In this document: positions 1-34,938 of the stretch, in pieces | How positions within the stretch are numbered: position 1 is the first letter of the stretch | Layout of the letters: each line of letters begins with the position of its first letter | Origin: Dictyostelium discoideum | Lineage: Eukaryota | Length of the DNA: 64,000 nucleotides | Direction: 5' to 3' | NCBI GenBank assembly: GCA_000004695.1 | Contig: CM000151.3 | Location: 2,720,001-2,784,000 of the forward strand | The notes under the pieces: generated by a model | What the model saw: the letters and a program-made list of their open reading frames with translations, nothing else | Database searches by the model: none | Told to the model about the DNA's origin: nothing | Made by a program: the position numbers and the translations under genes

Positions 1-1057
1 ATTACAAATGTATTTCCTTTTGATAATGATGCATAAAAGAACATATGGAATGACACCCATCCAACACTAGTTGCAGAAAATAAAACTACATTTTCATCAT
101 TATTAACCTTTGAACTTAAACAATTCCAATGATATAAAAGTCCAACCAAATTACTACCATTACTTCTTACAACTGGTTTAGAATTACCAGTTGTACCACT
201 TGTATAAATTAAATAGATTGGATGACTTGATTCTACTGGTACATAATCATAAAATGGTGATTGATTATTAATTTTAATTTTTTTAATTTCTTCTTCCCAA
301 TTTAATGAATTTGGTATTATTGTTTGGAAATTATTATTATTATAAACAATATCATTTCTATAAAGTGTTATTACATTGTCAGGCTTAAAAGTTGATAATT
401 CAATTGCTTCTTTTAAATTTGTAGTAATATCAACAATTTCATCAAGTCCAACTCCCAAATTTGTTGTAATTATTAATTTTGGTGTAATTGTTTCAATTCT
501 ATCTATTAAACTTTTAACTGAATAACCATCGAATAAAGCACAATGAGTTGCACCAATACGAGCACATGATAACATTGCAATTGGTGCTTCAACTGTATTT
601 GCCATATAAATTAAAACATTATCATTTTTTGAAACATTTAAATTCAAAAGTACTCTTGAAAATTCACATACTTTTTCATATAATTGATAATAAGTTAATT
701 TTACAGTTTTCTTTAAATATGGACATTCATAAATTAATGCAACTTGATCTTTTTTTAATGGATTCTGAACTTGTCTATCTAATAAATTATAACATGTATT
801 TAATTCACCACCTTTAAACCAATCTGGATAAATTTCATTACCACTATAAACTTTATCATACATTTTATCCCTTTTTTATTTTTAAATTATATTTATAAAA
901 AATTTAATTATTTATTTAACTAATTATGTTTTTTTTTATTGTATGCATACCAATAAACATATTTAGTGGCTACTTGATCCCAAAATGAAATTGGGTCGGT
1001 GTTTATTGAGAATTTATAATCATTTTCATAATTGAATGGTTGGCTTAATGTATACAT
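1..1057 (-). CDS. Acetyl-CoA synthetase-like acyl-CoA ligase (ANL/AMP-binding), paralog A; cut off by the window edge
   Basis: Exon 2 runs 1..870 on the minus strand and begins DKMYDKVYSGDEIYPDWFKGGELNTCYN, which matches the N-termini of the other copies; the plus ORF 548..817 is its antisense shadow. Exon 1 is 951..1057 (MYTLSQPFNYENDYKFSINTDPISFWDQVATKYVYW). Donor is GTATGC and acceptor AAAAAG|GG. The gene continues past position 1. Confidence 0.7.
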
Positions 1058-1913
1058 TATTTTAATAGTTTTTATAAAAATATATTTTTATTATTAAAAT
1101 TTTCAATAATATTGGATTATATAAAAAATGTAAATATAAGTTTTTTTTTTTTTTTTTTTTATAATTTAAAATTGATAACTCTTCATATAATATTTACATT
1201 TAATAAAAAAAAAAATTTAAAAAATAAAAATTTTACGACGTCATTTAATTGTTTTGAGATATCTTTAGACTTTTTAATAATTAAAATATTATTTAATTTC
1301 ATTCTAATTAAGCCTATAGATATTACTTTTTTGAAATTATTTTTAAAAAAGGTATTTTTATGTACTTTAAAAAAGTAAATTGTATTTTTAATTATTAATA
1401 ATCAAAATGAAAAAATGAAAATATATTGTTTTTTTTTTAAATATTAATTGATTTCATTTATGTCTGTCCCTTAATGGTGAAATTATTACCCCCTTTCTAT
1501 GTAGGTAAATCATTTTTAATCTTTTTTTTTTTATTTTGTTTTTTTTTTACCTTTTCAAGTACTTGAATTTTATATTATTATCTTTTTTTTTTTTTTTTTT
1601 AATTTTTAAAAAATTAATAATAATTCTTTTAATTAAAAATTAAAATATAAAAAAACACATGGGGGAGGGGGTAAAAACCACAATGGGTAATTTATATATA
1701 CATTGGGTTGAATTTTATATTAACTTATTTCTTATTTTTTTAATTTTTTAATTTAACACTATTCTAATCCTAATTAAAAAAAAATGTTTTTAATAATTTT
1801 TCCATATTAGAGGTTAATATTTTACTTTTTTAATTTTTGGTAATTTTATTTAATATTAAATTTGAAAATTTTTAAATTTTTTAGTAAAAACAAACTTTCA
1901 AAAGATACTCATT

Positions 1914-2010
1914 TATTATTATTATTATTATTATTATTATTATTATTATTATTATTATTATTATTATTATTATTATTATTATTATTATTATTATTATTAT
2001 TATTATTATT
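1914..2010. repeat. (TTA)n microsatellite, about 32 units
   Basis: Perfect att/tta trinucleotide run that ends directly at the stop codon of paralog B (2019). Confidence 0.95.
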
Positions 2011-2018
2011 TAACATTA

Positions 2019-30962: not shown

Positions 30963-32978
30963 ATGTATAAACTTAGTGATCCTTTTGATTATTTAAATGA
31001 TAACAGTTATTCAAATTCTAATCCAGAAGCTTTTTGGGATGAGGTTGCTAAAAAGAATGTTTTTTGGTAAATATATATCTTTTTTTTTCTTTGTTAAAAA
31101 AGAGATATTAAAATTAAAACAAAAACTAAGATTTTTAAAAATAAAAGGGAAAAAATGTATGATAAAGTTTATAGTGGCGATGAAATATATCCAGATTGGT
31201 TTAAAGGTGGTGAATTAAATACATGTTATAATTTATTAGACATTCATATTAAAAATCCTGCTAAAAGAGATCAAGATGCATTAATTTATGAATGTCCATA
31301 TTTAAAGAAAACAATTAAATTAACCTATTATCAATTATATGAAAAAGTATGTAAATTTTCAAGAGTTCTTTTAAACTTAAATGTTTCAAAAAATGATAAT
31401 GTTTTAATATTTATGGCAAATACATTAGAACCATTAATTGCAATGTTATCATGTGCTCGTATTGGTGCAACTCAATGTACATTATTCGATGGTTATTCGG
31501 TTAAAAGTTTAATAGATAGAATCGAAACAATTACACCAAAATTAATAATTACAACAAATTATGGTATTTTTAATGACGAAATCATTACATTTACACCAAA
31601 TTTAAAAGAAGCAATTGAATTATCAACTTTTAAACCAAGTAATGTAATTACTCTATTTAGAAATGAAGTTTTGGATGAAACAAAATTAAAAAAAGTTCAA
31701 AATATTCCAACTATTCCAAATACATTAAGTTGGTATGATGAAATTAAAAAATTAAAAGAAAATAATCAATCACCATTTTATGAATATGTACCAGTAGAAT
31801 CAAGTCATCCATTATATATACTTTATACAAGTGGCACAACTGGTAATACCAAAGCTGTTGTAAGAAGTAATGGTCCGCATATGGTTGGTATTAAATACTA
31901 TACATTCCGTAAAGAATCAGATATACCTCAAATTGTATTTTCAAATGCAAATATTGGGTGGGTATCATTTCATGGTTTCTTTTATGGTTTATTATCTGGA
32001 GGAAACACCTTGGTAATGTATGAAGGTGGTATTATAAAAAACGAACATATAGAAGATGATTTATGGATAGCTATTGTAAAACATAAAGTAACACATACAT
32101 TTCCATCCCCATCTGTATTTAGATACCTTATTAAAACTGATCCTGAAGGAACAATTGTACGTTCTAAGTATGATTTATCAAATTTAAAAGAAATATGGTG
32201 TGGCGGTGAAGTAATTGAAGAATCAATTCCAGAATACATTGAACAAAAGTTAAAAATAAAATGTTTAAGAGTATACGGTCAAAGTGAAATTGGCGTAACT
32301 TCATTTATTAGTGTCCATGCTTTAAATATTCCTTATAGAGCCACTGGCGTACCATCAATTTATATTAGACCATCAATACTTTCAGAAGAAGGTGAAGTTT
32401 TGAATTCAAATGAAATTGGTTTAGTTGCATTTAAACTACCAATGCCACCCAGTTTTGCAATTACATTTTATAAAAATGATGAAAAGTTTAAACAACTATT
32501 TACAAGGTTTCCAGGTTACTATGATTCAGGTGATTTAGGTTATATAGATCAAAGAGGATTTTATACAATTGTTTCAAGATCAGATGATCAAATTAAGATA
32601 AGTTGTAATAAAATTCAATTAAATACAATTGACACATCAATTTTAAAACATCCATCAGTTTTAGAATGTTGTTCTATTGGTATTTTAAGTCCAGATTGTC
32701 GTACTGCACCGATTGGTATATTGGTATTAAAAGAAAATCCATCAATTGATTTAAATAAATTACAAAATGAAATTAATAATATCATCACGCAAGATATTGA
32801 ATCACTGGCAGTCTTAAAAAAAATAATAGTTATTAACCAATTACCAAAAACAAAAGTTGGTAAAATTCCAAGACAAATTTTATCAAATTTATTAAATGAT
32901 CCAAACTATCAATTACCAGACGATGTCAATGACTCTGAACTATTTTATAAAATCAAAGAGTTATATATGAAAAATTAA
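30963..32978 (+). CDS. Acetyl-CoA synthetase-like acyl-CoA ligase, paralog J (intact; 2 exons)
   Basis: Exon 1 is 30963..31066, the intron is 31067..31147, and exon 2 is 31148..32978 (607 aa ORF). Confidence 0.85.
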
Positions 32979-33534
32979 TTTTAGCAAAGTTTTTGTAAAT
33001 TGTTTTTGTTCTAAAAAAAAAAAAAAAAAAAAAGAGTAATAATAATTAAAAAAGAAAATAATTTGGATTATTTTTTTTTAATTTAATAAAAGTAGGAGAT
33101 ATAAAAAATAAATAAAAAATATAAAAAAAAAATAAAAAAATTTAAACTTTTAAATAATATGTTTGAAATTATTTGATTTTTTTTTTTTTTTGACTAAAAA
33201 TAGTGTTTTACTATGGGACAAAAAGAGTTTTTTTAATCCACCTCCATCCTTATTGTTTTGTTTAAAGGGGTTTTCTCCCGTTGTAATTTAATTAATTTTA
33301 AATTAAATTTAATTTTCAAAAAAAAAAAAAAAAAAAAAAAAAAAAAAAAAAAAAAAAAAAAAAAAAAAAAAATATATTTTAATTTCACAAAAGTTTTCAT
33401 AATAGATATTAGATACCAGATATTAAAAAAATGTCACACAAAATCACCACATAAAATAATAATATAAATTCAAAAATAATTTAATTAAAAAGAAAATAAT
33501 AATTAATTAGAATAAAATTAAAATAATATAATAT

Positions 33535-34005
33535 TGTAGTTTAAATTGGATCTAACCCTATCGGCTGAGGTTGAAGTAGTTCGCTCAAATCTGTTAACTA
33601 TAAAAAGAACTAGGTTTCTAATTCAACCTCAGTAATAAATATATACAAAATAATAAAAACGCGATAGGGCTACGGTCATCAATTAAATTGAATATATTGC
33701 TAATGATGAATCTCAACAACAGGATAATGAGGAACAACAACAACAACCACAGGTATCAACATTCAATGAACAGCAACGTCAAATAAGGGAACAGCAGCAG
33801 GTAATAGATAAACAAAATCAACTTCTTCAACAACACATTCAATTAATAAATCAACAATCTCAACAACAATTAAATAACCATTCGACACCACCATCATCAC
33901 CCAACATTACAACACCAATAACTTCAGCAGCAATAACCAATACAATAAAGAAATCATTAGGAAAAACTAACACTGATGACACCGACCACCAGTTGTTACA
34001 ATTAA
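33535..34005 (+). mobile_element. Fragment of a repetitive element: terminal structure plus the start of a Q/N-rich ORF
   Basis: 33535..33725 is the terminal region and contains the internal inverted repeat gaggttgaa...ttcaacctc. 33720..34005 encodes ...QQRQIREQQQVIDKQNQLLQQHIQLINQQSQQQLNNHSTPPSSPNITTPITSAAITNTIKKSLGKTN. The same element occurs inverted at 61540..62330. Confidence 0.55.
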
Positions 34006-34938
34006 AATGAATATTATTTATATTTTTAAGATTTTTTTTATTTTTTTTTTTTCAAAAGATATGAAAAAATTTTGATCAGTAAAAAAAAATTTAACAATTT
34101 AATTTTAAAAAAATAATTATAAAAATCCCAATCTAAGCAATGAGAAAGATATAAAATAATTTGTTTTGTTTTTTATTCAAACAATGAGAAAGATATAAAA
34201 TGATTTTATTTATTTTTAATTTTTTTTTTTTTTTTTTTTTTTTTTTTTTCTTTGGACTCCATTTTATCTAGGCATTTAATTAGACAAAACTTAAATAAAG
34301 ATAATTACAAAAAATATATGAATGGAAATTTTTAAAACCCTAGAGATATTGGGCAGATATGATAGTTTCAAACCTTTTTTTATTTTAAAAAAAAAAAAAA
34401 AAAAATATCTTTACAATAAAAATTGTAAAAAAAAAAATATATATAGTGAAAAAAATCAAAAAAGCACTATTAAAAAGAAGAATTCAATTCACTTAACTTA
34501 AAATCAAAATCAAAATAAATATATAATTGAACACTTTTTTAATTAATTTAAAAAAAAAAAAAATTAAAAAAAAAAAAAAAAATACTAGTATACTCACTTA
34601 CATATATTTATATTTGTAAATTATATCGCAATTATTTTATTCCTTTTCAAATAATTATCAGTGCAAAAAAATAATGATAATAAAAATGAAAAAAAAAATT
34701 TACCACATCTTAGTCCCATATTTAACTAGTTTTTAATTAAATTCAACACAACTATGATTTTGAAAAAAAAAAAATAAAAAATAAAAAAAAAAAATGTATT
34801 ACTTTTTTTTTAAACAATTTTATTTATTTATTTTTATTTATTTTTCTTATTATATATCTCTATAATCTATATTATTTTTTTTTTTTTTTTTTTTTTTCTA
34901 TATATCTCTAATTTTTTTTTTAAATAACAATAATAATA

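Follow-up and report, generated by a model that had tools for sequence, protein, structure and literature searches.

A lineage-specific tandem array of acyl-coenzyme A synthetase-like genes on chromosome 2 of Dictyostelium discoideum

Eleven ligase copies at one locus

Chromosome 2 of Dictyostelium discoideum AX4 (an 8.48 Mb record) carries a tandem array of genes for acyl-coenzyme A (CoA) synthetase-like ligases of the ANL superfamily, which we analysed in a stretch of 64 000 nucleotides (GenBank contig CM000151.3, positions 2 720 001 to 2 784 000; hereafter the window). Ten ACAS_N/AMP-binding ligase copies, A to J, were found in the window by tblastn with copy E as the query (table 1): A, B and C on the minus strand and D to J on the plus strand, with a spacer of 6.8 kb between the two arms. 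This is the arrangement that an earlier note, made from the letters of the window alone, had described. An eleventh copy (K, DDB_G0273211, 646 aa), seen in an independent assembly, lies just past the window start, beyond A, and is followed by a TRAPPC10 gene that bounds the array on that side. The AX4 locus totals eleven copies, of which eight are intact (K, A, C, E, F, H, I and J) and three are pseudogenes (B, D and G). We consider it probable that they form a lineage-specific tandem family of ANL acyl-CoA-synthetase-like enzymes, derived from a PrpE/ACSS3-type ancestor, evolving by birth-and-death and predicted to act on larger acids.

All ten window copies share one gene structure: an upstream exon 1, a GT..AG intron of 61–102 bp and an exon 2, which measures approximately 1.83–1.86 kb in the intact copies inside the window. 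The earlier note was right about the common structure and the phase-2 intron, but its exon 1 length of 104 bp holds only for D to J, exon 1 being longer in A (107 bp) and shorter in B and C (92 bp). Nor does exon 1 end after a Trp codon, as had been proposed; in every window copy the intron interrupts this codon, between TG and G (phase 2). The window has a G + C content of approximately 20%; its introns are short and AT-rich, and tracts of poly-Asn and Gly-Ser occur in it.

Six spliced models match annotated AX4 proteins exactly, end to end, and each of these six proteins bears two DDB_G identifiers. The paired identifiers presumably reflect the large chromosome 2 duplication of AX3/AX4-derived strains, in which case the entire array may be present twice in that laboratory lineage. 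The public AX4 annotation has listed the genes for years, but as uncharacterized, under the names ‘hypothetical protein’, ‘uncharacterized protein’ or ‘acetyl-CoA synthetase-like protein’. Queries of the searchable literature with the DDB_G identifiers of the intact copies, with those of neighbouring and chromosome 1 genes, and with enzyme names combined with Dictyostelium returned no papers on these genes.

Copy B is put out of frame by the deletion of one nucleotide near 2699; its exon 2 is 91.9% identical to that of C, and its orthologue in a second D. discoideum strain (GCA_054859385.1) is an intact 647-aa protein. Copy G, of the F type, has several stops, frameshifts and a deletion of approximately residues 368–535, so the note had correctly read both B and G as pseudogenes. 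The repeat insertions and frameshift that it had seen in D are Gly-Ser and poly-N insertions and a frameshift near 16040, which leaves the A10 Lys motif (PKTKSGK) out of frame. Remnant fragments, too, are present as described: a ligase remnant of 93 bp lies at 4209–4302 (tblastn match 4213–4302, 30 aa). Also between B and C, the HPP gene is represented by a copy of its 3′ end (4293–4888, 87% identical to 7213–7843), and therefore the B/C duplication unit reached into the neighbouring gene. Copies E and F are 91% identical. Copies I and J, for which the note had estimated approximately 98% identity, are 97.4% identical in protein and 97.9% in nucleotide sequence; 26133–29036 plus 29569–29986 match 30870–33782 plus 34001–34411, a unit that comprises the gene and its 3′ flank.

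The window was compared with an independent contig of 3.6 Mb (JBTAPE010000001.1 of GCA_054883475.1), to which it is 99.94% identical over 1–17020, 99.85–99.90% over 8877–28305 and 99.56% over 29033–43014. Zero differences fall within any ligase copy, B, D and G carry the same lesions in both, and order and orientation are the same, so the copy number survives the note’s own concern that the array might be an assembly artefact. Copy A is intact on this contig (651 aa), and the part shared with the window is identical. The sole structural difference is a 727-bp segment of the I–J spacer (28306–29032) that is absent from GCA_054883475.1; this is a small tandem-repeat polymorphism or else an assembly error on one side or the other.

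In the second strain, GCA_054859385.1, which has approximately 93% nucleotide identity to AX4 here, the layout is alike: C is followed by the HPP, CfaA-like, lipase and secreted-protein genes, and these by a truncated D, by E and F and by fragments of G. Only one H/I-type copy stands ahead of J, leaving the plus arm one copy short, and copy number varies among strains by at least one. We also considered reading the order of genes in other strains from locus-tag numbers but dropped the idea, as the tags are not positional. The identity figure for this strain, whose genome is labelled D. discoideum, was taken over window positions 5475–28255 and seems to represent a high divergence within one species; either polymorphism is unusually high in this region, or the isolate represents a cryptic lineage.

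Family placement and predicted substrates

Copy E contains the ACAS_N (PF16177, 62 bits), AMP-binding (PF00501, 186 bits) and AMP-binding_C (PF13193, 60.6 bits) domains, for Pfam gathering scores of 27, 29.9 and 24.5, respectively, and its database homologues carry the same precomputed domains. The domain scores, the core motifs and the two-domain fold all place the copies in the ANL superfamily, and the presence of ACAS_N with nearest relatives among Acs (acetyl-CoA synthetase), PrpE (propionyl-CoA synthetase) and ACSS3 places them in the Acs/PrpE short-chain acyl-CoA synthetase clade. What the note had presented as a large tandem expansion of ANL ligases with an Acs-type N-terminus is thus genuine, with the catalytic motifs kept in the intact copies.

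Against the AcsA equivalog model (TIGR02188), copies E, C, H and J scored 341–376 bits for a cut-off of 724.95. The corresponding values were 328–382 bits for a cut-off of 955 (NF007815) and 281–327 for 827 (TIGR02316) with the two PrpE models, and the copies scored 128–156 bits for a cut-off of 850 with the NCBIfam model of MbcS. Because the AcsA and PrpE scores are about half the NCBIfam cut-offs, the copies, as judged from sequence, are neither core acetyl-CoA synthetases nor equivalogs of AcsA or PrpE. These scores, and the restriction of the family to a fast-evolving clade (see below), contradict the earlier description of a core metabolic enzyme. The nearest non-dictyostelid database matches are bacterial propionyl-CoA synthetases and vertebrate ACSS3 (33–37% identity), which makes the closest outside relatives PrpE/ACSS3-type rather than the acetyl-CoA synthetases to which the genes had been likened.

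The best solved structure for copy E is likewise PrpE-type (5gxd, E = 8.7e-92), followed by yeast, Candida and Salmonella acetyl-CoA synthetases. An AlphaFold2 model of copy E, built from a 44-sequence alignment, had a predicted local distance difference test score (pLDDT) of 89.5 and a predicted TM-score (pTM) of 0.90. Compared with Acs structures labelled as adenylate or AMP-analogue complexes, it gave TM-scores of 0.85–0.88 and a root-mean-square deviation of approximately 3 Å, and Foldseek returned a probability of 1.00 for PrpE and Acs structures over approximately 650 columns.

PrpE/ACSS3, represented by 5gxd from Dinoroseobacter shibae, is the best match in both sequence and structure (approx. 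35% identity over the full length; Foldseek E = 2e-65) and has the same ACAS_N, AMP-binding and AMP-binding_C architecture and the same order of motifs A3–A10. It differs in its ‘HWWQTETG’, with the gating Trp, and ‘AGER’, where the copies have ‘(G/V)(Y/F)GQ(T/S)E’ and mostly ‘GGE(P/V)’, and in the KPKG of its P-loop, which is N-x-K-[AGP] in the Dictyostelium copies. The Acs enzymes (Salmonella 1pg4, yeast Acs1 1ry2, Cryptococcus) share the fold, the N-terminal extension and the catalytic Lys motif, but their identity to the copies is approximately 26–30%, the copies fall under the TIGR02188 cut-off, and the Trp that enforces acetate use is Gly in the copies. The medium-chain enzyme MacsMa (Methanosarcina, 3etc) resembles the copies in its Gly at the Acs Trp position and in an A8 motif of the ‘S-G-x-K’ kind, but its sequence similarity is much weaker than that of Acs or PrpE (E = 8.9e-29 for 3etc versus 8.7e-92 for 5gxd), and the closest homology of the copies is not to Macs/ACSM. 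Mammalian ACSM, a family in which multiple genes encode ligases for medium-chain and xenobiotic acids, offers a likeness by analogy only. In copy E, the Pfam AMP-binding match begins at residue 75, after ACAS_N, while to our knowledge Macs/ACSM enzymes lack ACAS_N; if so, the resemblance to them would be a convergent opening of the pocket and not a sign of membership.

In the alignment, the intact copies (A, C, E, F, H, I, J and K) keep the A3, A5, A7, A8 and A10 core motifs, so that the sharing of ANL catalytic motifs, on which the note’s proposal hung, is upheld. The elements kept are the P-loop Ser-Gly-Thr-Thr-Gly and Lys, the A5 Gln-Thr/Ser-Glu, the A7 Gly-Asp, the A8 Arg-x-Asp-Asp and the A10 Lys. 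The A10 motif itself, which had been given as PKTxSGKIxR, reads PKTK[TSAV]GKI[PQ]R, with the Lys retained but the Ser mostly replaced. Two members of the family on AX4 chromosome 1, DDB_G0268272 and DDB_G0267544, have a degenerate A10 motif (‘PIS.(N/G)GK’) and are without the conserved Trp of the ‘GW..H’ motif (‘GGL.FH’).

Two positions bear on the acyl pocket. The residue ahead of Gln-Thr-Glu is Trp in Acs and PrpE (‘WWQTE’) and Gly in every copy, readable pseudogenes included, in the variants ‘GYGQTE’, ‘VYGQTE’ and ‘VFGQSE’; the pocket-closing Trp of AcsA (AcsSe Trp414, AcsMt Trp416) occurs in none of them. The second is the residue ahead of Gly-Glu, which we take as the counterpart of Salmonella Acs Val386. 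Fungal Acs has Val here in the printed alignments and PrpE has Ala; copies K, C, E, F, I and J have Gly, copy A has Ala and copy H has Ser. The Salmonella and Methanothermobacter numbering follows the cited papers, the title of 2p2b (‘V386A mutation’) and general knowledge, our alignments having covered fungal Acs and PrpE. The gating Trp is known to restrict the acyl pocket of Acs, and its exchange for Gly lets Acs take chains of up to seven carbons and branched acids (PMC10455477, PMC8383264). Medium-chain enzymes have Gly at this position (PMC10455477). The copies agree with them in this respect, as would fit enzymes that activate larger or branched acids. With Gly in place of the gating Trp and Gly, Ala or Ser at the Val386 position, the copies are predicted to accept larger acyl groups; the analogy suggests acids larger than acetate or propionate, whether medium-chain, branched or otherwise bulky. 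The substrate diversification put forward in the note is thus plausible, with the gating position favouring non-acetate substrates.

Evolution of the family and rival explanations

In a neighbour-joining tree of 59 sequences (100 bootstraps), the copies of D. discoideum, D. citrinum, D. dimigraforme and D. firmibasis formed one clade (bootstrap 100), sister to the single gene of D. purpureum, a lone copy with no array and with unrelated neighbours. Within this clade, A-type, K-type, B/C-type, chromosome-1-type and E–J-type subclades could be recognized. Each subclade contains several species, and therefore the older duplications predate these species; the I/J, B/C and E/F/G duplications are recent. 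On this evidence, the family is a fast-evolving one that is specific to the D. discoideum species group.

Pairwise protein identity among the paralogues ranges from 64 to 97.4%, with an overall ratio of non-synonymous to synonymous divergence (dN/dS, by the NG86 method) of 0.27–0.58, which shows constraint. Divergence is unevenly spread along the gene. Codons 36–200 are almost invariant, with a dS of 0.16–0.25 between distant paralogues, and the paralogues diverge most in codons 270–450, between motifs A3 and A6, where dS is 0.5–0.7 and dN/dS is 0.5–0.7. Unexpectedly long identical tracts were found in copies that are not sisters, for example in C with E/F (codons 194–220), K with F (35–79) and A with C (148–173), each with p ≤ 0.0005 in a permutation test on runs of shared states. 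The 5′ half looks to have been homogenized by gene conversion, also across the oppositely oriented arms, on top of the divergence of the central segment. The array has the marks of tandem birth-and-death evolution: its paralogues lie side by side and have one gene structure in common, some are pseudogenes, others are recent segmental duplicates, and copy number varies between genomes. Other tandem enzyme families of this kind likewise show tandem units, pseudogenes, conversion tracts, strain differences in copy number and lineage-specific growth; nothing is mechanistically unusual here, and only the enzyme family and the host clade are new.

Under the interpretation that we favour, the family would have begun with a PrpE/ACSS3-type short-chain acyl-CoA synthetase bearing an Acs N-terminal domain. 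The array would have grown by duplication of tandem units, one of approximately 4.7 kb in the case of I/J and one that took along a piece of the HPP gene in the case of B/C. Copies would exchange sequence by gene conversion, chiefly in the 5′ half, while some decay and copy number drifts apart between strains. Each intact protein, we infer, would be an active CoA ligase that adenylates a carboxylic acid larger than propionate with ATP and then passes the acyl group to CoA. Specificity probably differs from paralogue to paralogue, because most of the divergence lies in the central A3–A6 segment, which we take to build the acyl pocket, as in ANL enzymes generally.

Several points weigh against this interpretation. 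The substrate prediction draws on two pocket positions and an analogy; the tree was built by neighbour joining only; NG86 estimates of dS are rough in a genome of approximately 20% GC; and the low dS of the 5′ half could partly be constraint at the nucleotide level rather than gene conversion. The literature search found no enzymatic, expression or genetic data on any copy. The canonical P-loop ‘KPKG’ has given way to ‘N-[SAT]-K-[AGP]’ in the whole D. discoideum-group clade, a loss that could affect ATP handling (the D. purpureum orthologue retains ‘GKPKG’). Finally, the Gly of the A8 motif ‘S-G-x-K/R’ is Tyr in H, Phe in I and Cys in J, and this replacement may impair the CoA step. We equate this residue by motif, not by alignment, with Gly459 of MacsMa, for which strict conservation and a role in opening the pantetheine tunnel have been described; a literature search for ‘Gly524’ with acetyl-CoA synthetase found nothing, and the role of the Gly is cited here through the MacsMa paper. 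In D. dimigraforme, relatives of the copies keep the A8 Gly. Copies I and J differ at both residues of the A8 dipeptide, despite their overall identity of 97.4%.

The P-loop and A8 changes would fit the idea that some or all copies are no longer CoA ligases but adenylation-only enzymes, enzymes with another acyl acceptor or dead proteins with some other role. We think this unlikely, since the A10 Lys, the A5 Thr/Ser-Glu, the A7 Asp and the A8 Arg-x-Asp-Asp are all retained, dN/dS below 0.6 indicates continuing constraint, and the predicted fold is a confident, complete two-domain ligase; moreover, exchange of the A8 Gly for Ala in a medium-chain enzyme lowered kcat only about fivefold (from 2.15 to 0.41 s-1) and changed Km little. 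At the other extreme, the copies could be ordinary acetyl- or propionyl-CoA synthetase isozymes, amplified for dosage in core metabolism. Their ACAS_N domain, the ranking of AcsA and PrpE as best family models and of PrpE and Acs as best structures would fit that idea. We nevertheless reject it as very improbable: the scores fall short of the curated equivalog cut-offs by about half, the copies share only approximately 35% identity with PrpE/ACSS3, the gating Trp is Gly in all copies with Gly, Ala or Ser for Val386, and the paralogues, only 64–77% identical with dN/dS of 0.3–0.58, are unlike the product of dosage amplification of a conserved enzyme.

The earlier note had also tied the ligases to the neighbouring lipase gene, and a functional cluster can be imagined in which the class 3 lipase frees fatty acids and the ligases activate them. 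The lipase, CfaA-like and HPP genes do adjoin the array, between the arms, in AX4, the second D. discoideum strain and D. dimigraforme. The array of D. firmibasis, however, begins right behind the homologue of the 225-aa secreted protein, and the interval holds neither a lipase nor a CfaA or HPP gene. The block is not conserved there, and therefore we place little weight on such a cluster; the neighbours of the single D. purpureum orthologue are also unrelated, and adjacency alone is weak evidence in a compact genome. A conserved lipase–ligase cluster, a little less improbable to us than dosage amplification, was accordingly rejected, and the tie drawn in the note is a weak one. That the array is an artefact of assembly, with one or two genes wrongly expanded or repeats collapsed or mis-joined, has next to no probability. 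The missing 727-bp spacer segment is the one observation in its favour; most copies differ by 9–36% in protein and so cannot be read-level duplicates, the independent contig has the same order, orientation, coding sequences and pseudogene lesions, and homologous arrays exist in one divergent strain and two sister species. For practical purposes, these refute it.

A stronger form of the favoured interpretation would have the paralogues as rapidly diversifying enzymes for different medium-chain, branched or xenobiotic acids, tuned in the A3–A6 segment, with H, I and J perhaps adenylation-only or using an acceptor other than CoA. We offer this only tentatively and doubt that it holds in full. Such enzymes could serve a bacterivorous soil amoeba by detoxifying or assimilating acids from its prey, or by supplying unusual starter units for its many polyketide synthases. 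If the paralogues do have distinct acyl specificities, the locus would provide a set of naturally occurring pocket variants that share one scaffold, useful for understanding and engineering the substrate range of Acs/PrpE-type ligases, and would point to unexplored small-acid or secondary metabolism in Dictyostelium. It is also a compact case, in a model organism, of birth-and-death evolution, gene conversion and copy-number change between strains. This is an ordinary lineage-specific expansion; tandem enzyme families of this sort are common, and no long-standing question is opened by it.

Feature coordinates, spacer genes and flanks

Table 1. Ligase copies, duplicated segments and spacer genes in the window.
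Feature	Position	Strand	tblastn match (query copy E)	Details
Copy A	1..1057	-	3-863	exon 1 1057-951 (107 bp), intron 950-871, exon 2 from 870; cut by window start
Copy B, pseudogene in AX4	2019..4024	-	2022-3850	exon 1 4024-3933 (92 bp)
Duplication debris between B and C	4209..4888	-		ligase fragment and HPP 3′-end copy
Copy C, intact	5007..7011	-	5013-6851	DDB_G0273215/DDB_G0273709, 647 aa; exon 1 92 bp, intron 61 bp
HPP-family membrane protein	7455..8390	-		Pfam PF04982
Secreted Cys-rich protein, counting-factor-associated CfaA_B_C family	8893..9486	-		Pfam PF11912
Class 3 lipase domain protein, Lipase_3	9906..11354	-		Pfam PF01764
225-aa secreted Cys-rich protein	12471..13230	+		signal peptide, one intron; reconstructed model
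Copy D, pseudogene	13819..16217	+	14032-16199	
Copy E, intact	16552..18602	+	16746-18599	DDB_G0273225/DDB_G0273697, 655 aa
Copy F, intact	18884..20904	+	19057-20898	DDB_G0273227/DDB_G0273695, 652 aa
Copy G, pseudogene of F type	21497..23040	+	21670-23034	
Copy H, intact	23505..25522	+	23696-25513	DDB_G0273305/DDB_G0273691, 645 aa
Recent tandem segmental duplication giving I and J	26133..34411	+		unit of ~4.74 kb; includes 3′ flank
Copy I, intact	26225..28240	+	26417-28234	DDB_G0273229/DDB_G0273689, 644 aa
Copy J, intact	30963..32978	+	31155-32972	DDB_G0273365/DDB_G0273687, 644 aa

Among the genes between the two arms, the HPP, secreted Cys-rich and lipase assignments made in the note agree with Pfam, but its ‘DPBB’ label for the fourth is unconfirmed: no Pfam match was obtained for this gene, either as a 138-aa open reading frame or as the 225-aa protein (the latter at E ≤ 1). 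The 225-aa protein is 92–96% identical in D. dimigraforme and D. firmibasis.

Right after the array, at 34939–35304 on the plus strand, lies a 121-aa Cys/His-rich open reading frame, which has no Pfam match and is an annotated gene in both other D. discoideum assemblies. Further downstream are a large gene for a P-type copper-transporting ATPase with HMA, E1-E2 ATPase and hydrolase domains (45356–48688, minus strand) and open reading frames with TPR, Arb2 and G8/CEMIP domains, all of them unrelated to the ligases. A tRNA scan of the window found no tRNA genes. A dispersed repeat of 400–750 bp occurs in inverted orientation, at 75–80% identity, at 33284–34045 in the 3′ flank of J and at 61608–62541.

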